A DNA stretch of 64,000 nucleotides from Promethearchaeota archaeon. GTDB lineage: Archaea > Asgardarchaeota > Lokiarchaeia > Sigyniarchaeales > SOKP01. Below the pieces are notes generated by a model that saw only the letters and a list, made by a program, of their open reading frames with translations, was not told where the DNA came from and made no database searches. The translations under genes were made by a program, and so were the position numbers. Below, piece after piece: positions 7,857 to 28,187 of this stretch (positions are counted from its first letter, which is position 1; every line of letters starts with the position of its first letter). The stretch spans positions 720,785 through 784,784 of the forward strand of contig JBHLNF010000001.1 in the NCBI GenBank assembly GCA_048937405.1. Direction: 5' to 3'.

Positions 7857-7919
7857 GTGAGAGTTGATTGCTTAAAAAACATTAATTCATACTTGCATCA
7901 TTGGCTACATCATGAATAA
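7857..7919 (+). CDS. Putative His-rich leader peptide of the his operon (MRVDCLKNINSYLHHWLHHE; the frame extends to an ATG at 7755)
   Basis: CAT CAT TGG CTA CAT CAT GAA TAA gives 4 His in the last 7 sense codons, 81 nt upstream of hisIE. The start codon is uncertain (GTG 7857, TTG 7800 or ATG 7755). Confidence 0.7.
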   Translation: MRVDCLKNINSYLHHWLHHE

Positions 7920-7990
7920 TTCCGATGAATTAGTATAATATTTTATCATTTATTCATCGGAATAAAATCGAACTAAATTATTTTAGTTTG
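7919..7990 (+). promoter_or_regulatory. his leader RNA structures (attenuator-like)
   Basis: Perfect 12-bp stem ATTCCGATGAAT (7919-7930) / ATTCATCGGAAT (7952-7963) starting on the leader stop codon. A second stem CGAACTAAA-ttat-TTTAGTTTG (7969-7990) abuts the GGGGGA SD. Confidence 0.65.
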
Positions 7991-8000
7991 GGGGATAATT

Positions 8001-8909
8001 ATGATAATATTAAAAATTAATATGAAGGATATGGAAACGGTTGGAGGCTTAAAAGAGTTTATAGATGGAGTATTTACAAAACGAAATTGGGATTTGTTTA
8101 TAACTCTTGTTCTTGAAGCTAATAAGGAAAGCCTTATTACACTGATAAAGGATGATATGCTTAAGATGGTTTCTAATAAGGTTAAAATATGGATAAATTC
8201 AGAAAATAATCAAAAAGAATTAATTAATTTAATAACAGAAAAGGGAATGACGATATACAATTCAGAATCTCATAAAAATGATGAGGTTTTAAGTTTGGAT
8301 TCAATAAAAGATTATTCATCAATAGATAATATTTTGTTTAAGATTTTAGATTTTGATAAAGCTAATGGACTGATACCAACAATTGTACAAGACCTTAATG
8401 ACAATGTACTAATGCTTGCATATTCATCAAAAGAGTCCTTGAAGGTTACAATCAAATATAGAAAATCAACTTATTTTAGCAGATCGAGGAATCGCCTATG
8501 GACTAAAGGTGAAGAATCAGGAAATTATCAAATTGTAAAGAGCATTCTTTACGATTGTGATGCGGATACTTTATTATTTAGGGTAAAACAGAAAGGTTTT
8601 GCTTGTCATAAAGGTACTTATTCTTGTTTTCAGGATCGGAAATTTTCTATAGGATATCTCTATGATTTAATAGTTGATAGAATCAAAAATTATAGTGTAA
8701 ATGAATCCTATAGTAAAAGACTTGCTGAGGATAATGAATTATTAATGTCTAAAATTGAGGAAGAGTGTAACGAAGTGATAAATTACACCGATAGGGATAA
8801 CTTAATTTGGGAAATTGCAGATATTGCATATTTTATTCTTGTATTAATGGCTACCAAAAAAATTAAACCTGAAGAAATAATAAATGAATTAAAGAGGAGG
8901 AACAAATGA
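8001..8909 (+). CDS. hisIE: Bifunctional phosphoribosyl-AMP cyclohydrolase / phosphoribosyl-ATP pyrophosphatase with a ~105-aa N-terminal extension
   Basis: HisI motifs GLIPTIVQD, SRSRNRLWTKGEESG, DCDADTLL, ACHKGTYSCF. HisE motifs SYSKRL, KIEEE, EIAD. Confidence 0.92.
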   Translation: MIILKINMKDMETVGGLKEFIDGVFTKRNWDLFITLVLEANKESLITLIKDDMLKMVSNKVKIWINSENNQKELINLITEKGMTIYNSESHKNDEVLSLDSIKDYSSIDNILFKILDFDKANGLIPTIVQDLNDNVLMLAYSSKESLKVTIKYRKSTYFSRSRNRLWTKGEESGNYQIVKSILYDCDADTLLFRVKQKGFACHKGTYSCFQDRKFSIGYLYDLIVDRIKNYSVNESYSKRLAEDNELLMSKIEEECNEVINYTDRDNLIWEIADIAYFILVLMATKKIKPEEIINELKRRNK

Positions 8910-20286: not shown

Positions 20287-20625
20287 CTAACCGGGGTAAT
20301 CATTTTTTGATCCCATTAGAGTAGTTGTTTCTTCGATCCATTGAGATAAATCTTTATCAATTCTACAGAATGTAACAATTTTATCTAAATCTCTTAGTCT
20401 ACTAAATGAGCATTCTACCATAACATCCCATCCTCCATAAACAGGAGTAGCATATGTTATGTTCCAATCTTCTTTTGGATCTGTTGATTTTAAGCCCCTG
20501 AGTTTATCAACAACTTTCCATTCAGAACCAATTACTTTTAAGCGAATTAGTATATACCCTCTATAATACAATTTATGTGCATTGTTATTATTTTTGACAA
20601 CTTTATTATTCTTTTTTAGTTTCAT
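20287..20625 (-). CDS. Stand-alone Lrp/AsnC ligand-binding (RAM) domain protein
   Basis: GYILIRLKVIGSEWKVVDKL...VYGGWDVMVE...IEETTTL, with no HTH. Overlaps the argG 3' end and has a GGAGG SD. Confidence 0.7.
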   Translation of the reverse strand: MKLKKNNKVVKNNNNAHKLYYRGYILIRLKVIGSEWKVVDKLRGLKSTDPKEDWNITYATPVYGGWDVMVECSFSRLRDLDKIVTFCRIDKDLSQWIEETTTLMGSKNDYPG

Positions 20626-21907
20626 ATTTTATTACCTCCTCTATTTGATCTTTATTTGAATATCCTGTTATTGATTTAGCAATATTTCTTACTTGAAAAC
20701 CAATCTCACTTTGTAGTCCCCATATTGGAATGAATCCATAACTCAATTTTTGATTGAACGTACTCTTGGTATCATATGTAGCTAAATTTATATCATAAAG
20801 CCCATAAGGAGATTCTCTTGAAACCACGCTAGCGTTCCCCTTGAAAAGTTTCACTTTTACTTCTCCTGTAACCTTTTCATTTACAACATTAATAAATGCT
20901 TCTAAGGCGTCTCTTAACGGATCCACCCACAATCCTTCATAAATTAATTCTGTCCAACGTTGGTCTACTATCGTTTTAAATGAATTCTCATGTTTAGTAC
21001 AGACAAATTTTTCAAGATCTTTATGTGCCTTAATTAATATTAAAGCTGTTGGAACTTCATATACCTCCCTTGATTTTAATCCAATCGCTCGATCTTCCAT
21101 ATGATTTACTCTTCCAATTCCGTGTTTACAACCAATTTTATGTAATTCTCCAATTAAATCAACACCATTAATCTTTCTACCATTTAAACAGACTGGTATT
21201 CCTTTTTCAAAAGATATTTGGAGATATTTTGGTGTATCAGGCGCAGTTTCGGGTGAAGTTGTCCAAGAGAAACAATCTTCTGGGGGTTCAATTTCTGGGT
21301 TTTCTAAGACATCACATTCTGCACTTCTCCCGAAAAGATTCTCATCAACACTATATTTTTTATATTGTTGTTGAATAGGAATTCCATGGAGTTGAGCATA
21401 TTTAATTTCTTCATCTCTACCCATATTCCATTCTATTAAAGGTTGTAATATTTCAATATTAGGAGCATAAGCTCTCATTGTCACATTAAACCGTATTTGA
21501 TCATTTCCTTTTCCTGTACAACCATGAGCTATTGCCTCAATATTCTCTTGTTGTGCAATGTTTATAGCTTCAATAGCTATCAATGGTCTTCCTACTGCCG
21601 TGCTTAGGGGGTAAACTCCTTGATACAAACCGTTTGCTTTAATGGTAGGAAATAAATAATTATTTACAAACTTCTCTTTTAAATCTACGGTGTAGTGCTT
21701 AATCACCCCTAAATTATATGCCTTTTCCTCAATTTCCTTAAATCTGGATGGATCTGCGAATTCCTGACCGAGATCTGCTGTAAAAGTATAAATTTCAGAA
21801 CTATATTTATCTTGTAACCATTTTATCATGCAAGAAGTATCCAGACCACCAGAATACATCAATAAAATTTTATTATATTTATTTTTTTTAGGTCCTAACT
21901 GATTCAT
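20606..21907 (-). CDS. argG: Argininosuccinate synthase
   Basis: YSGGLDTS, HGCTGKGNDQIRF, YSVDENL, GLKSREVYE. Confidence 0.97.
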   Translation of the reverse strand: MNQLGPKKNKYNKILLMYSGGLDTSCMIKWLQDKYSSEIYTFTADLGQEFADPSRFKEIEEKAYNLGVIKHYTVDLKEKFVNNYLFPTIKANGLYQGVYPLSTAVGRPLIAIEAINIAQQENIEAIAHGCTGKGNDQIRFNVTMRAYAPNIEILQPLIEWNMGRDEEIKYAQLHGIPIQQQYKKYSVDENLFGRSAECDVLENPEIEPPEDCFSWTTSPETAPDTPKYLQISFEKGIPVCLNGRKINGVDLIGELHKIGCKHGIGRVNHMEDRAIGLKSREVYEVPTALILIKAHKDLEKFVCTKHENSFKTIVDQRWTELIYEGLWVDPLRDALEAFINVVNEKVTGEVKVKLFKGNASVVSRESPYGLYDINLATYDTKSTFNQKLSYGFIPIWGLQSEIGFQVRNIAKSITGYSNKDQIEEVIKYETKKE

Positions 21908-21955
21908 TAATCACTCACTTTCTTTTATTAATATCTATTATTTTATTATAATTTT

Positions 21956-23002
21956 TTATATAGGGAACATAGGAATTGATTTTAAACCTATATTCTCTTT
22001 TAAATTAAACATTAAATTCATATTTTGAACAGCTTGTCCTGCTCCACCCTTGACTAGATTATCAATTGCTCCAATTATAATTATTCTATTAGCTTTTTCA
22101 TCTAAACAAAATCCAATATCGCAATAATTTGATCCTTTAACCCATTTCGTTTCAGGGAATTCGTTTTTACCCATTAACCGAATAAAAAATTCATTACTAT
22201 AATTTTTTTCATATATTTTTTTGATATCTTCATAATTATATGACTTTTTGAGAATTCCATAGCAGGTACATAATATTCCTCTATTCATAGGGAGGAGATG
22301 CGGAGTAAAAATTACTGAAATTTCATTTCCTTTTAATTCACCTAATTCTTGTTCGATTTCTGGAGTATGTCGGTGAGATAATACTTTATATGCCTTAGTT
22401 GATTCATTACATTCTGAAAAATGGGTTCCAAGATTTAAAGATCTTCCAGCTCCTGATACTCCTGATTTTGCATCAATAATTATATTCCTTTCGTCCAAAA
22501 TCCCTTCTTTTATAAGAGGTAATAAACATAATAACGCACAAGTAGGATAGCAACCAGGATTAGCTACTAATTTTGAACTCTTTATTTGGTCTCTTTTCCA
22601 TTCTGAAAGACCGTAGACGGCTTTATTCAACAGACTAGCATTATTATGTTTAATACTATACCATAACTCGTATTCATCTACATTCTTTAATCGAAAATCT
22701 GCACTTAGATCAATAACTTTTACATTTTTTAAAATATCATCTGTTAATATCTCTGAAGTAACTCCATGAGGTAATGATAGAAATATGATATCAAGTTGGT
22801 TTATTGCAGAATTAAGATCATCCTCATCACAGATCATCTCACATATTTTATTGAAGTTTGAATAAACAGAATTATAACTTTGATTTTTATGATTTTTAGA
22901 TGTTAATAATTTTAATTCTACTTCAGGATGATTATATAAAATTCTGACTAATTCTGATCCTATATATCCAGTTGCTCCTATTATACCCGCTCTAATCATC
23001 AT
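21956..23002 (-). CDS. argC: N-acetyl-gamma-glutamyl-phosphate reductase
   Basis: IIGATGY, IDLSADFRL, ANPGCYPT, SGVSGAGR, HRHTPEI, DNLVKGGAGQAVQN. Confidence 0.97.
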   Translation of the reverse strand: MMIRAGIIGATGYIGSELVRILYNHPEVELKLLTSKNHKNQSYNSVYSNFNKICEMICDEDDLNSAINQLDIIFLSLPHGVTSEILTDDILKNVKVIDLSADFRLKNVDEYELWYSIKHNNASLLNKAVYGLSEWKRDQIKSSKLVANPGCYPTCALLCLLPLIKEGILDERNIIIDAKSGVSGAGRSLNLGTHFSECNESTKAYKVLSHRHTPEIEQELGELKGNEISVIFTPHLLPMNRGILCTCYGILKKSYNYEDIKKIYEKNYSNEFFIRLMGKNEFPETKWVKGSNYCDIGFCLDEKANRIIIIGAIDNLVKGGAGQAVQNMNLMFNLKENIGLKSIPMFPI

Positions 23003-24204
23003 TATAAGCCTTTATTATTTTTATTCTGTTGTAAAACATCATCAAGGATAGATATTCCTTCATCAATTTCATTTTTGCTAATAATCAGTGGTGGAACAAA
23101 TCTTATTACATTTTCTCCAGCACCTAATATAAGTAAACCTTGTTCCATAGATTTTTCTACTATATCCTTAACAGGAGTATTTAGTTCCAAACCAAGTATC
23201 AAACCATAACCTCTAACATCCTTAATCATAGCATATTTTTCCTTTAAAGTTGCTAGTTTCTCTTTTAGATATTCCCCTTGTTTTCGTACATTTTCAAGGA
23301 TTCCACCGTTTAACAATTTATTCAGTACTACTTTACCTGCTGTACATGCTAAATGATTACCTCCAAACGTTGATGCATGATCACCTGGTTGAAAAGCATC
23401 TGCTTTACTTTGAATTGCCAACATTGCTCCTATGGGAATACCTCCACCTAAACCTTTTGCTAATGAAACTACATCAGGTTTTACATCAAATATTTGATAT
23501 GCAAATAATTCACCAGTTCTTCCAATGCCACATTGAACTTCATCAAATACAAGTACAATATCTTTTTCATCACACAGAGCTCTTACTTTTTTTAAGTAAG
23601 ATTTCTCAGCAGGATGAATTCCTCCTTCACCTTGTATAGGCTCTATTATTATAGCACATGTGTCTTCATTAACTGCTCCTTTTAACTCATTAAAGTTATT
23701 TAATTCAACATAGGAAAATCCAGGCATTAGTGGATCAAATCCTTTTTGATATTTAGTCTGACCTGTAGCAGTGACAGTGGCCATTGTTCTTCCGTGAAAC
23801 GATCTCTTCATTGTGATAATTTTATGACAATTATCTCCATGGACTTTCTTTCCATATTTTTTACATAATTTTATTGCGGCTTCTACCGCCTCAGCTCCAC
23901 TATTACAATAAAAAATTTTATCGAAACAGCTATTTTTAATTAAAATCTCTCCTAACTCAATTGAGGGCATCATCCAGTACAAATTTGAACAATGTTGCAT
24001 TTTTTTTAATTGTGCAATAATTTCTTGGATATAATCAGGATCATTATAGCCTAAAGCATTTACAGCTATCCCAGCAACAAAATCTACATACTTTTTTCCA
24101 TCACTATCCCAGAGATAGATTCCATTTCCTTTTTCTAATACAATGGGAAACTGTTTATAAGTATTCATTATAACCTTAGTTCCCCTTTCAATCCAATCAC
24201 TCAT
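23002..24204 (-). CDS. argD: Acetylornithine aminotransferase
   Basis: DFVAGIAVNALG, NSGAEA, SFHGRT, EPIQGEGG, DEVQCG, AKGLGGG, HASTFGGN. Start placed at ATG 24204, after a GAGAGGA SD. Confidence 0.95.
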   Translation of the reverse strand: MSDWIERGTKVIMNTYKQFPIVLEKGNGIYLWDSDGKKYVDFVAGIAVNALGYNDPDYIQEIIAQLKKMQHCSNLYWMMPSIELGEILIKNSCFDKIFYCNSGAEAVEAAIKLCKKYGKKVHGDNCHKIITMKRSFHGRTMATVTATGQTKYQKGFDPLMPGFSYVELNNFNELKGAVNEDTCAIIIEPIQGEGGIHPAEKSYLKKVRALCDEKDIVLVFDEVQCGIGRTGELFAYQIFDVKPDVVSLAKGLGGGIPIGAMLAIQSKADAFQPGDHASTFGGNHLACTAGKVVLNKLLNGGILENVRKQGEYLKEKLATLKEKYAMIKDVRGYGLILGLELNTPVKDIVEKSMEQGLLILGAGENVIRFVPPLIISKNEIDEGISILDDVLQQNKNNKGL

Positions 24205-24247
24205 AATTAAATTCCTCTCTTTCATTTTTATATTTTTTTTTATAATA

Positions 24248-25108
24248 TTACTTTTTAAACATTGTACCAATCCCTTGAGGGGTAAAAATTTCAAGTAAAA
24301 GACTATGTTCAATTCTTCCATCAATAATATGAACTGCTTTTACATCATTATTTATTGCTTCTATACAACTTCTTACTTTTGGAATCATCCCTTCTGTAAT
24401 TTTACCTTCTCTAATATAAGATAAAGCTTGTTCAGTCTTCAATTCTGATATTAGTGAATTGTTATCATTTACATCTAGAAGTACTCCTAAAACGTCAGTT
24501 ATATAGATTAACTTTTCTACATTTAATGCTTTTGAAATAGCTAGTGCTACTTCATCAGCATTAATATTATATGTATTTCCTAAATTATCTGAGCCTATTG
24601 GTGCAATAACTGGAATTAAAGCATTTTTAAGTATCCCTTTCAAAAATTGAGTATTCACTTCAGTAACCTCTCCAACAAAACCTAAATCTTCTCCGTCAAC
24701 CATTTTTTTCTTTACTTTCAATAAATTACTATCTTTCCCACTCAGTCCTAATGCATTACTTCCTTGAGTCTGAATATCATTTACAATTCCTTTATTTATT
24801 TTTCCAGCTAATACCATTTCGACAACATCCATTGTTTCTTCATCAGTAATTCTAAGTCCATTAAAAAATTTTGACTCGATCTTTAATTTTCTTAATAAAA
24901 TATTAATTGAAGCTCCGCCCCCATGCACAACTATTATATTAATTCCTACGAAATCGAGGAAAACAAGATCTTCAATAAAACCCTTTTTAAGCTCAGGTTT
25001 TACCATTGCGCTACCACCATATTTTATAACAAAAGTTTTTCCATAAAATGCTCTAATGTATTTTATTGCTTCTATCAAAATTCTTGCTTTTCCAATATTT
25101 TCAATCAT
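24248..25108 (-). CDS. argB: Acetylglutamate kinase
   Basis: VIKYGGSAM, VVHGGG, GLRITD, YNINAD, GMIPKV, HSLLLEIFT. Start placed at ATG 25108, after an AAGGTGG SD. Confidence 0.96.
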   Translation of the reverse strand: MIENIGKARILIEAIKYIRAFYGKTFVIKYGGSAMVKPELKKGFIEDLVFLDFVGINIIVVHGGGASINILLRKLKIESKFFNGLRITDEETMDVVEMVLAGKINKGIVNDIQTQGSNALGLSGKDSNLLKVKKKMVDGEDLGFVGEVTEVNTQFLKGILKNALIPVIAPIGSDNLGNTYNINADEVALAISKALNVEKLIYITDVLGVLLDVNDNNSLISELKTEQALSYIREGKITEGMIPKVRSCIEAINNDVKAVHIIDGRIEHSLLLEIFTPQGIGTMFKK

Positions 25109-25121
25109 TTTTTCCACCTTT

Positions 25122-26363
25122 TCAGGTTCTATAAGATCCATTAATTCGAACATAATCATAACTTAAATCACATCCCCATGCGATTGCTTCACTTTCTCCA
25201 TCCTTTAAAAGCAATTCTACAATAATTTCATTTTCTTTTAATATTTTTAGTGCTAAATCTTCATCAAATTGTAAAGCACTTCCATCTTTCATAACCTCGA
25301 TTGAATTAACATCATTCAAAAATTTTATTGATACTTTTAATGGATCAAATTTTGCTCCAGAGTAGCCCATTGCAGCAATAATCCTACCCCAATTTGCGTC
25401 TTCTCCAAAAAAGGCTGTCTTTACTAAATTTGAGGTTATTACGGATTTACTTAAGATTTTTGCATCTTGTTTTGATGCAGCTCCTTTGACGTGAACTGCA
25501 ATAAATTTGCTAGCTCCTTCTCCATCTCTTACAATCTCTTGAGCTAAATATAAATTTACATAGTGAAGTGCGTTTTTAAAAATAAAATATTCTTCACTTT
25601 CATCAAAAATTTCTGAGTTATTACCCATTCCATTAGCCAAAAGAATTACTGAATCACTGGTACTTGTATCACCATCTACAGAGATCATATTATATGATTC
25701 TTCAATACTTTCTCTAAACGCTTTTTCTAATAATTCTTTTGAAATATTAATATCAGTTGAAATAAATGAAAGCATAGTAGCCATATTTGGATGAATCATT
25801 CCAGAACCCTTCGCCATCCCTCCTATTCTAATTTTCTTATTATCAATAATAAATTCAACCGAGATCTCTTTAGGATGTGTATCTGTCGTCATAACTGCTT
25901 CAGCAGCTAATCTTGCATCTTTATCTCTACTCCCTATGTTTTTATACGTATTTTTAATACCCTCAATTATAATTTCAATTGGAAGAGGCTTTCCAATAAC
26001 TCCTGTAGAAGCAACAATTACTTGATTTTTCTTTATTCCTAAACAAGAGGCTAACTCAGCTGCCATCATTTCATTATGTTTAATTCCCATTTCTCCTGTA
26101 CAAACATTCGCATTTCCACTATTAACGACTATGCCTTGTATCAAATTGTGATTTTGAATAAGATTTTGATTCCATAATACAGAAGGAGCTTTTACAATAT
26201 TTGTAGTAAAAACCCCTACTGCTTTAGCCGGAACTTCACTATATACTATAGCTAGGTCTTTCTTGCATTCTTTAATCCCTATATGGCAACCAGTAGCATG
26301 AAATCCTTTTGGACTTGTAATTCCTCCTTTTAATTTTGTTATATCAATATTTTTTTTTTCCAT
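25122..26363 (-). CDS. argJ: Ornithine acetyltransferase / N-acetylglutamate synthase
   Basis: NSGNAN, STGVIG, MTTDT, KGSGMIHPNMATML (autoproteolysis Thr), DGEGA, NWGRI, WGCDLSYDYVRINGSYRT. Confidence 0.97.
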   Translation of the reverse strand: MEKKNIDITKLKGGITSPKGFHATGCHIGIKECKKDLAIVYSEVPAKAVGVFTTNIVKAPSVLWNQNLIQNHNLIQGIVVNSGNANVCTGEMGIKHNEMMAAELASCLGIKKNQVIVASTGVIGKPLPIEIIIEGIKNTYKNIGSRDKDARLAAEAVMTTDTHPKEISVEFIIDNKKIRIGGMAKGSGMIHPNMATMLSFISTDINISKELLEKAFRESIEESYNMISVDGDTSTSDSVILLANGMGNNSEIFDESEEYFIFKNALHYVNLYLAQEIVRDGEGASKFIAVHVKGAASKQDAKILSKSVITSNLVKTAFFGEDANWGRIIAAMGYSGAKFDPLKVSIKFLNDVNSIEVMKDGSALQFDEDLALKILKENEIIVELLLKDGESEAIAWGCDLSYDYVRINGSYRT

Positions 26364-26436
26364 ATCTTAAAACATACCTTTTATTTCCATTTCTTGAACC
26401 TATTAAAATTTATATCTTGATTATTTTGTTTGAAAA

Positions 26437-26506
26437 ATTAATAAAAATAAAAAATTAGAAGAAGTGGAGAAAGAAGAATGACACTTCATTTCTTACTTTT
26501 ATTAAT
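26437..26506 (-). promoter_or_regulatory. arg leader long hairpin that sequesters a U-tract (attenuator-like)
   Basis: mRNA 5' arm AUUAAUAAAAGUAAGAAAU-GAAGUG pairs with CACUUC-(UUCUA)-AUUUUUUAUUUUUAUUAAU: 19 bp (2 GU) plus 6 bp. It begins 3 nt after the leader stop codon. Confidence 0.65.
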
Positions 26507-26509
26507 AAA

Positions 26510-26605
26510 TTAAAGACGGCGACGTGCCGAGTATAGATTGCGTAGTGCTTTTTGAAATTGTTTTCCTACAATTTCGTTATTCATATAAGAATCAAATAAA
26601 ATCAT
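26510..26605 (-). CDS. Putative Arg-rich leader peptide of the argJBDCG operon (MILFDSYMNNEIVGKQFQKALRNLYSARRRL; alternative start at 26584)
   Basis: ATG preceded by GGTG at 8 nt. The ORF ends GCA CGT CGC CGT CTT TAA, and all four Arg codons are CGY. It lies 146 nt upstream of argJ. Confidence 0.78.
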   Translation of the reverse strand: MILFDSYMNNEIVGKQFQKALRNLYSARRRL

Positions 26606-26655
26606 ACTTCAAACACCAACACAATATTAACAATAATTTAAAATAGGAACCTAAC

Positions 26656-26672
26656 TATAAAAATTTACCGTT
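26656..26672 (-). promoter_or_regulatory. Candidate BRE/TATA promoter for the arg leader and operon
   Basis: The minus strand reads AACGGTAAA-TTTTTATA about 50 nt upstream of the leader ATG at 26605. Confidence 0.45.
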
Positions 26673-26702
26673 TCTTCTTGATTATTTTTCAATAATCTGT
26701 TT

Positions 26703-28187
26703 TTATGAGATTAATTTCTCAATAAGTTCGTCTCTTTGAAGTTCAGCGTTTCTTATTTTTTCTATTCTGTTTAAAAACGATGTGTACAATGAATCTTTTC
26801 TTGTACTTAAATTATTAATATTAAGTTTGATCTCTTTTCCAGATGGAGAACCTTGACTAATTCTTCTTTCTAAACAAAGATCTAAATTCTTTAATGTTTG
26901 AATTATTTTATCTGATATATTTACTTCCTTCTTTATCACATCAAAAATCGATTTCTCAATTTTTTCTCTATTTAGCATATCTTCTGGCTTTTCTATATTA
27001 TTTACTAAACGAGCAACAACTTCATGTGATTGTCTAAAAGGAATTTTATAATCTTGTACTAACAGTTCTGCTAAATCCAATGCTAGAATATAACTCTCAC
27101 CAATAGCACTTCTCATTTTCTCTTTATTAATCGATATTGTTGAAAATATACCTTTAAACATAGTAATTACGGAAAGTATCGTATTAATCGAACTTATTAA
27201 TTTTTTCTTTATATCCTGAAAATCCATAAAATAGCCTGTTGGAATTGCTTTAATAATCATTGCTGCATTAAACAGGTTTGAAACAACTTTTGTACTTCTA
27301 CTTCTTATTAATTCTACAGTATCTGGATTTTTTTTTTGCGGCATAACACTTGAAACAGAACAATATTCATCTGCTAATTCTATAAAGTTAAATTCTTTAG
27401 TTGCCCATATTATTAAATCTTCGGCAATTCTCGAAAATTGAATAGCCAGTAAAGATAGTCCCATTAATGTTTCATAAAGATAATCTTTTGAACTAATCGC
27501 ATCAATAGAATTATAAATTATTCCATCAAAACCTAATAATTCTGCCGTTCTTTCTCTATTAATATTAATACTTGTTCCACCTATAGCACATGCTCCTAAG
27601 GGATTTTTATTAATTCTATTATAAATCTCTTCTAATCTTTCTAGAGATCTTAAAATTTGTGCAATGTAATTATTTATATAATGAGAAAAAGTCCCTAATT
27701 GACCTCTCTGTAAATGAGTATATAATGGCATATATGAATTTATGTTATTTTTAGAAATATTTAGCAAAATATCAACAAGAGCGAATAATTCTTCGGAAAT
27801 CTTGTTTAATTCTTTCCTGATTTTTAATCTTAAATCAAGTGATACTTGATCATTTCTAGATCTGCCAGTATGAATTTTACCCCCTATTTCAATCCCAATT
27901 GCATCTATAACACTTTTTTCTATAAATGGATGTATATCTTCAAAACTCTCATCAATTTCAATCTGATTATTCTTTAACTTTTTCATTATATCTTCAAGGA
28001 CAATTAAGATTTTCCTTATTTCACTTTCGTCAAGGATTTTTTGTTCAAATAGCATAATAGTATGAACTTGAGTACCAATAATATCTTCTTCAGCAATCCA
28101 AAAGTCTTCCTTTAAAGATGAGATAAACTTAAGTGCATTGTCGTTAAGAGGGATATCCAATCCTGTCCTATATAAATTTTTTCTCAT
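26703..28187 (-). CDS. argH: Argininosuccinate lyase
   Basis: EDIH, HTGRSRNDQ, MPLYTHLQ, SSVMPQKKNPD, PFRQSH. Confidence 0.97.
   Translation of the reverse strand: MRKNLYRTGLDIPLNDNALKFISSLKEDFWIAEEDIIGTQVHTIMLFEQKILDESEIRKILIVLEDIMKKLKNNQIEIDESFEDIHPFIEKSVIDAIGIEIGGKIHTGRSRNDQVSLDLRLKIRKELNKISEELFALVDILLNISKNNINSYMPLYTHLQRGQLGTFSHYINNYIAQILRSLERLEEIYNRINKNPLGACAIGGTSININRERTAELLGFDGIIYNSIDAISSKDYLYETLMGLSLLAIQFSRIAEDLIIWATKEFNFIELADEYCSVSSVMPQKKNPDTVELIRSRSTKVVSNLFNAAMIIKAIPTGYFMDFQDIKKKLISSINTILSVITMFKGIFSTISINKEKMRSAIGESYILALDLAELLVQDYKIPFRQSHEVVARLVNNIEKPEDMLNREKIEKSIFDVIKKEVNISDKIIQTLKNLDLCLERRISQGSPSGKEIKLNINNLSTRKDSLYTSFLNRIEKIRNAELQRDELIEKLIS

Follow-up and report, generated by a model that had tools for sequence, protein, structure and literature searches.

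A long hairpin at the stop codon of an arginine-codon leader upstream of argJ in an Asgard archaeon: a candidate ribosome-operated switch

Introduction

Leader-peptide attenuation is a textbook bacterial mechanism; arginine operons are, to our knowledge, not among the classical attenuated operons, and a full-text literature search found no published case of leader-peptide attenuation in archaea. The question raised by the locus described here is whether a long hairpin, positioned directly after the stop codon of a short open reading frame ending in arginine codons, could be the moving part of such a device in an Asgard archaeon. The locus lies on the minus strand of Promethearchaeota archaeon assembly GCA_048937405.1, contig JBHLNF010000001.1, within a 64,000-nt stretch of DNA (hereafter the window) to which all coordinates refer; the window has a G+C content of about 29% and the genome measures 4.47 Mb. 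Gene order on this strand is argH (28187-26703), a spacer of 339 nt, argJ (26363-25122), argB, argD, argC, and argG, and the spacer contains an upstream open reading frame (uORF) of 31 codons (26605-26510), with the hairpin starting 3 nt past its stop codon. An original prediction, made from the window sequence, held that this hairpin buries a U-tract resembling an archaeal terminator and that a short alternative stem competes with it. Our analysis of the fold, of related leaders, and of ribosome placement confirms the hairpin as real and statistically unusual, places it in a conserved leader with arginine codons, and points tentatively to a role for it as a switch.

Results and Discussion

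RNAfold applied to 26509-26432 reproduced exactly the pairing that had been proposed, i.e. 26506-26488 with 26455-26437 (19 bp) and 26487-26482 with 26466-26461 (6 bp), a total of 25 bp around a 15-nt loop of C and U with one 5-nt bulge. The structure has a free energy of -17.6 kcal/mol, and this minimum free energy (MFE) fold makes up 63% of the ensemble. It was more stable than all 200 dinucleotide shuffles (mean -5.4 +/- 2.1 kcal/mol, z -5.88) and than 99% of natural intergenic windows, with 1.0% of 3000 random 78-nt intergenic windows from the same genome reaching -17.6 kcal/mol, or 0.1% among those of similarly low G+C. The MFE fold of the whole spacer contains the same long helix, which is rich in A-U and includes 3 G-C pairs. 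Its 5′ arm (26482-26506) is rich in A and G, its 15-nt C/U-rich loop (26467-26481) is highly conserved in sequence, and its 3′ arm (26437-26466) consists of an inner segment of 6 nt (26466-26461), the 5-nt bulge, and an outer, U-rich segment of 19 nt (26455-26437) carrying runs of U6 and U5. A further U5 run (26432-26436) follows the stem directly on its 3′ side and is unpaired in every fold, giving runs of U6, U5, and U5 within 26454-26432. The tract from 26481 to 26432, said to be almost entirely C/U, does lack G altogether, with C and U accounting for 84% of it (32 U, 10 C, 8 A, 0 G). The alternative stem (26490-26486 with 26481-26477), which uses the 5′ end of the loop, exists as claimed but has an energy of about -2.5 to -2.8 kcal/mol; it is the MFE structure only for transcripts ending before approximately 26461, has a probability of about zero once the 3′ arm is present, and showed no covariation among the aligned orthologs. 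At equilibrium its competition is negligible.

Direct DNA search was of little use in finding related leaders: blastn of the leader against 41 relatives gave only low-complexity AT-rich matches, and orthologs were therefore collected through ArgJ. Within the genus this argJ occurs in just 5 of 54 genomes, and within the class in 12 of 160; the leader was recognisable before argJ in 9 of the 9 argJ-bearing genomes of the family, and roughly 80 more ArgJ clusters of Promethearchaeota were seen besides those used here; a search with nhmmer for paralogous leaders in the genome recovered this copy only. When metagenome contigs (L113-L121 derive from sediment samples) and contigs reached through a protein database were included, there were 21 distinct versions of the leader (individual versions carry L numbers below), of which 19 could be aligned (alignments A1 and A2), together with a divergent type, L110/L197. 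Mean pairwise identity was 70% for the leader, 78% for the first 600 nt of argJ, and 38% for the spacer upstream of the leader promoter region, a pattern that supports conservation of the leader under constraint.

The uORF (26510-26605) ends in Ser-Ala-Arg-Arg-Arg-Leu-stop, and its frame is open in all 21 versions, with lengths from 27 to 35 codons (31 here and in most relatives) and internal indels of 12 and 15 nt that keep the frame; it begins with ATG in this genome and with TTG in relatives. The three tandem arginine codons, CGU CGC CGU (26516-26524), stand one codon before the UAA stop (26510-26512). CGT and CGC are rare in this genome, with 12% and 3% of arginine codons, compared with 55% for AGA. 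The arginine run varies among relatives (RRRR, RRR, RHR, RLR, or RR), always with at least two arginines in the last seven codons, and every aligned leader keeps the first CGN codon unchanged. ARAGORN called 7 tRNAs in the whole genome without introns allowed and 14 with introns, a set so sparse that it is uninformative as to which tRNA reads CGY.

The placement of the hairpin relative to this stop codon is, across the sequences compared, the best-conserved feature of the design. The stop, 3 nt before the hairpin in the window, is kept in position in 18 of 19 aligned leaders; the exception, L022, has a 4-nt insertion that places the stop 9 nt further on, within the 5′ arm. Folded singly from the stop codon, 12 of 16 orthologs gave a long hairpin of an A-rich with a U-rich arm at z of -2.5 or below. 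Most versions keep a hairpin at this site, and in folds of 19 leaders the distance from the first stop-codon base to the stem, wherever the MFE structure is the long hairpin, is 1-10 nt. Of the cells of the long hairpin, 84% can pair in the 16-sequence alignment compared with 51-57% when the partner is slid, and in the 19-sequence alignment 81% compared with 52-57%. In L206 a U-A pair of the outer stem has become C-G through changes on both sides, and L201 shows the same double change in the inner stem. The divergent type L110/L197 has a homologous uORF of 30 codons with the same Shine-Dalgarno (SD)/anti-SD pair and with arginines at matching positions, and its stop codon runs into the base of a hairpin of -25 kcal/mol that is unrelated in sequence and is followed by U5; like the hairpin of the window, this one has an A-rich 5′ arm and a U-rich 3′ arm. 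Such replacement of the helix with retention of its position is the strongest comparative support for the hairpin.

The consequences of ribosome position were modeled in folds constrained by an assumed footprint of -12 to +15 around the P site. With any one of the terminal arginine codons in the A site, the helix remained intact in 16 of 16 orthologs. When the A site held the stop codon instead, at least the lower 7 base pairs were opened, the opening reaching in the window 13 nt from the first base of the stop, and the mean unpaired probability of the U-rich strand rose from 0.33 to 0.55 in the window and also rose in 16 of 16 orthologs. Thus the expectation that a ribosome stalled on the arginine codons would leave the 5′ arm largely free, and one at the stop codon would cover it, holds in these models, the predicted opening in the window amounting to the lower 7 bp. 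Between the first base of the last arginine codon and the stem lie 10-16 nt, which is the spacing at which structures downstream of frameshift sites coexist with the ribosome; a stalled ribosome should therefore abut the helix rather than melt it. For the same reason we rejected a scheme in which the stalled ribosome clips the base of a terminator stem, since this spacing is compatible with an intact structure.

How transcripts end elsewhere in this genome bears on what the helix might be hiding. T-runs are enriched after stop codons and depleted before starts, with T7 or longer in 26-31% of downstream regions compared with 15-17% for A7 or longer, and the 45 nt before T6 or longer runs at gene ends are unstructured (mean z -0.25, median 0.03). 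Gene-end T-runs thus lack a hairpin, which indicates that termination in this organism needs none and that the leader hairpin is an addition and not a feature of terminators in general. This agrees with the Term-seq studies of other archaea cited in PMC8716108, which, at least as represented there, describe terminators without hairpins. The KH domains of aCPSF1 bind the U-tract (PMC8716108), terminators dependent on FttA, the same factor, require U-rich single-stranded RNA at -1 to -36 (PMC11616081), and an aCPSF1/FttA ortholog is encoded in the genome (TIGR03675, 883 bits against a cut-off of 580).

We therefore propose, tentatively and at somewhat less than even confidence, that the hairpin acts as the switch helix in an arginine-sensing leader operated by the ribosome and that its ON state hides an archaeal U-tract or aCPSF1 site. 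When charged tRNA-Arg is scarce, a ribosome would wait on an arginine codon 9-21 nt upstream of the stem, and the A-rich 5′ arm would be free to pair with the U-rich strand on the exit of that strand from the polymerase. In archaea the termination signal is the single-stranded U-tract itself, and aCPSF1/FttA needs single-stranded U-rich RNA approximately 23-36 nt behind the polymerase; pairing would thus block termination and allow argJBDCG to be transcribed. When arginine is plentiful, the ribosome would reach the stop codon and open the lower stem, the U/C-rich strand would then emerge unpaired, and the transcript would be terminated or cut around 26455-26432. Such an arrangement would be a two-state variant of the bacterial attenuator, combining an anti-terminator helix with a hairpin-independent archaeal U-tract terminator. 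The helix is assigned to the ON state because it is present with the stalled ribosome and disturbed at the stop, and because no other assignment would give a biosynthetic operon negative feedback.

Several observations weigh against this proposal, and they are given here along with the other explanations on which they bear. The footprint used in the constrained folds is an assumption whose size comes from bacteria and eukaryotes, translation of the uORF is itself something we infer from sequence, and the arginine run is not constant, with RHR, RLR, and RR all occurring. As to the hairpin, four of the 16 orthologs (L113, L114, L115, and L119) have deletions and fold no better than shuffles. In the alignment of 16 sequences, 3′ letters shuffled among sequences pair equally well, so that covariation is absent there; with 19 sequences a weak signal appears, 7 pairs having changed on both sides against 4.3 expected, a number reached in 26 of 500 shuffles. 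RNAalifold, run on both alignments, recovered helices further upstream but placed no pairs (0) in the long hairpin, partly because of register shifts in the repetitive C/U and A/U tracts. One explanation that takes these results at face value is that the helix is conserved to structure or stabilize the leader RNA, or results incidentally from an A-rich stretch facing a U-rich one, with no ribosome-dependent switching, and that the arginine codons partly reflect a small G+C-rich stem. We consider this rather improbable. Column composition does explain the pairing, slid controls already pair at 52-57%, the hairpin is weak in the four orthologs just mentioned, a 4-bp G-C stem spans the arginine codons with a register that shifts between clades, and coding-type selection on the uORF was not detected: the ratio of nonsynonymous to synonymous change (pN/pS) is no lower in frame (0.69) than in the other frames (0.69 and 0.81), so that amino acid-level selection is not seen and conservation of the leader is mainly at the level of RNA. 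Yet the stem is a 0.1-1% outlier among natural AT-rich windows, the placement of the stem at the stop codon is kept even where the hairpin sequence has been replaced, the first arginine codon, in the loop of the small G-C stem, is invariant, and the same window holds a parallel leader with histidine codons and a hairpin at its stop.

The behavior of the U-runs weighs on the proposal in a different manner. Nearly constant across lineages is a U-run, usually of 5-8 U, that begins within 0-2 nt of the end of the stem and is unpaired in all folds; the homologous run after the stem is 7-8 U in most relatives, U5 in L110 and L206, and U4 in L120. U-runs inside the 3′ arm, on the other hand, are found in the window's own clade, L206, and L110. 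The sister clade is missing approximately 9-10 nt of the 3′ strand and has no run of at least four U buried, so that burial of a U-tract, although found in the genome of the window (U6 and U5 in the arm), is not the conserved principle; moreover, the U7 run behind the stem is never paired, and a U-tract would thus stay exposed in the supposed ON state. Bacterial intrinsic terminators also have this form, a stem with a U-run directly behind it. The hairpin with its U-run might then itself be a terminator or a strong pause of the bacterial intrinsic kind, relieved only by a ribosome on the stop codon, and transcription of argJBDCG would be coupled positively to ongoing translation or to the supply of arginine, or else constitutively damped. 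The unpaired run so close to the stem as the most constant feature of the family, the G+C-rich base of the L110/L197 stem directly before U5, and the sister clade without U-runs inside the arm would all fit. We nevertheless regard this explanation as unlikely: the sign of the feedback is wrong, with starvation switching a biosynthetic operon off, gene-end T-runs here show no preference for hairpins, no conserved upstream anti-terminator partner was found for the 5′ arm, and a scan for the bacterial-type terminator consensus found 0 sites in 26200-26800. The hairpin-free archaeal terminators of the Term-seq studies cited in PMC8716108, as represented there, also speak against it.

A third difficulty is what happens once the transcript grows longer. 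Downstream of the U-run, the leader family has an A-rich spacer of approximately 50-70 nt and then argJ; in the window, this spacer and the argJ ribosome-binding region (26364-26431) can pair weakly with the U-rich 3′ arm, and when longer transcripts are folded, equilibrium in several orthologs favors pairing of the U-rich strand with the A-rich spacer. Control could accordingly be imagined at translation, with the U/C-rich strand, freed when the 5′ arm is covered or missing, pairing with the spacer and the SD and start of argJ and blocking initiation, and the hairpin acting as an anti-sequestor. A helix between the 3′ arm together with the U-run and the spacer or argJ start is possible in 16 of 16 aligned leaders (87% of cells pair, compared with 51-58% slid), it is the MFE structure in full-length leaders of many orthologs, and SD accessibility in L110 falls from 0.54 to 0.20-0.28 when the 5′ arm is blocked. 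On the other side, the spacer helix is weak (-7.4 kcal/mol in L106), driven by composition, without covariation, and not followed by a U-run; accessibility of the argJ start did not change consistently between ribosome states in the 16 aligned leaders, and the window's own copy showed a slight rise, opposite to what sequestration would give. Translational control of this type therefore seems to us a poor candidate.

It is also conceivable that the peptide, rather than the RNA, is the sensor, and that a nascent arrest peptide sensing free arginine or ornithine holds the ribosome on the stop codon and keeps the hairpin open. The peptide pattern is conserved even in L110, with Phe, a Lys/Arg-Ala-Pro segment, and two arginines at matching positions, and the stop codon is placed so that a ribosome there opens the stem. 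However, pN/pS is alike in all three frames, the leader peptide has no Pfam match, and the conserved Lys-Ala-Pro codons coincide with an anti-SD segment, so that RNA constraints explain them; an arrest peptide is thus very improbable here. Ligand-sensing arrest peptides include the fungal arginine attenuator peptide and bacterial SpeFL and TnaC, and the present leader differs from them in that selection on its amino acid sequence was not detected.

The proposal of a switch helix set by ribosome position is retained on this evidence at the tentative level stated above, and within it the buried U-tract and the competing fold, both emphasized in the original prediction, are the least supported parts of the model.

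Comparison with known systems shows a mixture of familiar and unfamiliar features. Like the enterobacterial attenuators trpL, hisL, pheL, and thrL, the leader is a short SD-led uORF before a biosynthetic operon; as in the trpL type, tandem codons for the end product stand a few codons before the stop, a helix may be left free or covered according to ribosome position, a U-run follows, and a segment further along can sequester the SD of the leader itself. Unlike the trpL type, the host is an Asgard archaeon, there is one strong helix rather than the set 1:2, 2:3, and 3:4, neither the mutually exclusive anti-terminator and terminator hairpins of regions 1-4 nor a G+C-rich terminator hairpin was found, and termination probably uses a U-tract that needs no hairpin, whether or not aCPSF1/FttA takes part. 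The leader is also unlike the leader families of Rfam, with no covariance-model match: no hit reached the gathering score in the 64-kb window, and at E of 5 or below the sole match was one of 14.8 bits on the opposite strand, attributable to chance. Among published arginine-sensing systems, the nearest analogue that we found is by comparison of design the Salmonella speF leader orf34, where pausing at two consecutive arginine codons selects between alternative mRNA structures (PMC6386406). In that leader ORF, too, ribosome pausing at arginine codons is the readout of arginine supply, and factor-dependent termination takes part, in a system based on Rho and RNase G that controls polyamine synthesis (PMC6386406); the leader described here differs in being archaeal, in having no sequence or structural similarity to orf34, and in controlling, if the proposal is correct, the arginine pathway itself. 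With the U-tract/aCPSF1 (FttA) terminators of archaea (PMC8716108, PMC11616081) it would share runs of 5-7 U as the signal, and the factor is encoded in the genome. Known terminators of that class are at gene ends or inside operons and are not preceded by a hairpin, whereas the U-rich strand in the present case is an arm of a strong helix in a 5′ leader beside a uORF, and termination would be conditional.

Other features of the locus and genome

Upstream of the uORF is a candidate archaeal promoter (26656-26670, minus strand), recognized from sequence, which consists of a TATA-like box at 26663-26656 with a stretch resembling the transcription factor B recognition element just upstream, 38 nt before the leader SD. 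The TATA-like box and a conserved short motif preceding it occur 35-38 nt upstream of the SD in most of 16 orthologous loci, a few being less clear, and we infer the promoter role from this arrangement; a sigma-70 scan gave promoter matches below shuffle expectation. The SD of the uORF, GGUG (26614-26617), starts at -12 from the ATG and is invariant in 19 aligned leaders, and across the genome the motifs GGTG, GAGG, and AGGT show enrichment between -15 and -9 upstream of genes, so the leader SD sits at the distance of that peak.

Two further structures predicted by RNAalifold lie within the uORF. A small hairpin of 8 bp with a 6-nt loop (26554-26575) keeps most of its pairs in 15-16 of 16 sequences, with one double-sided change (L022), and is half deleted in L118 and L199. 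The anti-SD segment (26543-26550) corresponds to the Lys-Ala-Pro codons, is nearly invariant, and can form a consensus 9-bp long-range helix with the region of the leader SD (26619-26612), a pairing that is possible in the divergent L110 leader as well. SD/anti-SD pairing could restrict the leader to one round of translation, by analogy with the E. coli trp leader, for which such self-sequestration has been described. A function on the plus strand was rejected because both neighboring genes and all of the conserved signals are on the minus strand.

The first gene after the leader, argJ (25122-26363), begins argJ-argB-argD-argC-argG, and its 5′ end differs from that of relatives. At 26367-26390 on the minus strand, the ATG used by argJ in all relatives opens here a mini-ORF of 7 codons closed by TAA. 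One codon (3 nt) past that stop, at 26363, ArgJ starts again in the same frame, and there are approximately 26 nt extra near the argJ 5′ end compared with other leaders. On sequence this would be either a remodelled 5′ end or a local assembly error.

The nearest ArgJ proteins outside Promethearchaeota are bacterial, with 61-63% identity for Melainabacteria/Gastranaerophilales and approximately 58% for Clostridia (Vallitalea and Epulopiscium), and the arginine operon (region 20606-28187 of the window) looks, by these similarities, to have been acquired from bacteria. The upstream regions of bacterial ArgJ relatives contained no comparable leader, which suggests that the leader evolved later, within the archaeal host. 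A comparable leader was likewise missing from three Asgard genomes of other families. Recurrent RRYRI frames before argJ were set aside, as they appear to be the end of the upstream gene, probably argC, read out of frame. In a genome of another Asgard family (G035, L109), a uORF of 23 codons with three arginine codons occurs approximately 60-270 nt upstream of argJ, and a long hairpin with U8 lies approximately 45 nt past the uORF and ahead of argJ; the layout differs, and this leader may be independent.

A second candidate leader is present in the window at 7857-8003 on the plus strand, where a uORF rich in histidine codons ends in HHWLHHE-stop with a strong hairpin directly after it. A second hairpin lies beside the SD of hisIE, and the stretch of 154 nt has a z of -4.3; the first hairpin is not followed by a U-run, and the layout differs from that of the arginine leader. 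In two genome-wide scans for a uORF with cognate codons plus a hairpin, only the arginine and histidine leaders were credible. The top T-rich match of the scans was not a leader and is a probable tRNA-Sec gene ahead of SepSecS: at approximately 230400-230600 of contig C7 (L195), a structured, G+C-rich stretch with a CCA-like end directly precedes the gene for O-phosphoseryl-tRNA(Sec) selenium transferase, and is probably, judged by sequence, a tRNA-Sec gene that ARAGORN did not call. The genome (G000) is rated 100% complete, yet only 14 tRNAs were called by ARAGORN, many with odd intron positions, and most of the tRNA set of this Asgard archaeon escapes the program. An RFRRRF frame was also discarded, being part of a phosphofructokinase upstream region and not a leader. 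The phosphofructokinase gene there (contig C25, approximately 148975-149080; L196:375-480) is interrupted after its N-terminal Gly-Gly-Gly motif, with approximately 31 extra bases containing a stop codon and then a Cys-Pro-Gly-Leu-Asn motif in another frame, which could be a frameshift, an insertion, or a sequencing error.

Conclusions

The hairpin turns the idea of an Asgard arginine leader into a testable mechanism, with a strand that should be freed, sites at which transcripts should end, and mutations, compensatory ones included, that should flip the response. In its general form, that Asgard archaea have a two-state attenuator in which a single anti-terminator hairpin, set by ribosome position on a uORF with arginine codons, hides or exposes a hairpin-independent U-tract/aCPSF1 (FttA) site, the idea is one that we advance with appreciable doubt. 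If the hairpin does hide a U-tract from aCPSF1/FttA, this would be the first conditional factor-dependent or U-tract termination in archaea, and would provide direct functional evidence of transcription-translation coupling in Asgard archaea. It would also place ribosome-mediated attenuation in the archaeal lineage closest to eukaryotes, using 3′-end machinery of the archaeal and eukaryotic type rather than a bacterial terminator hairpin.

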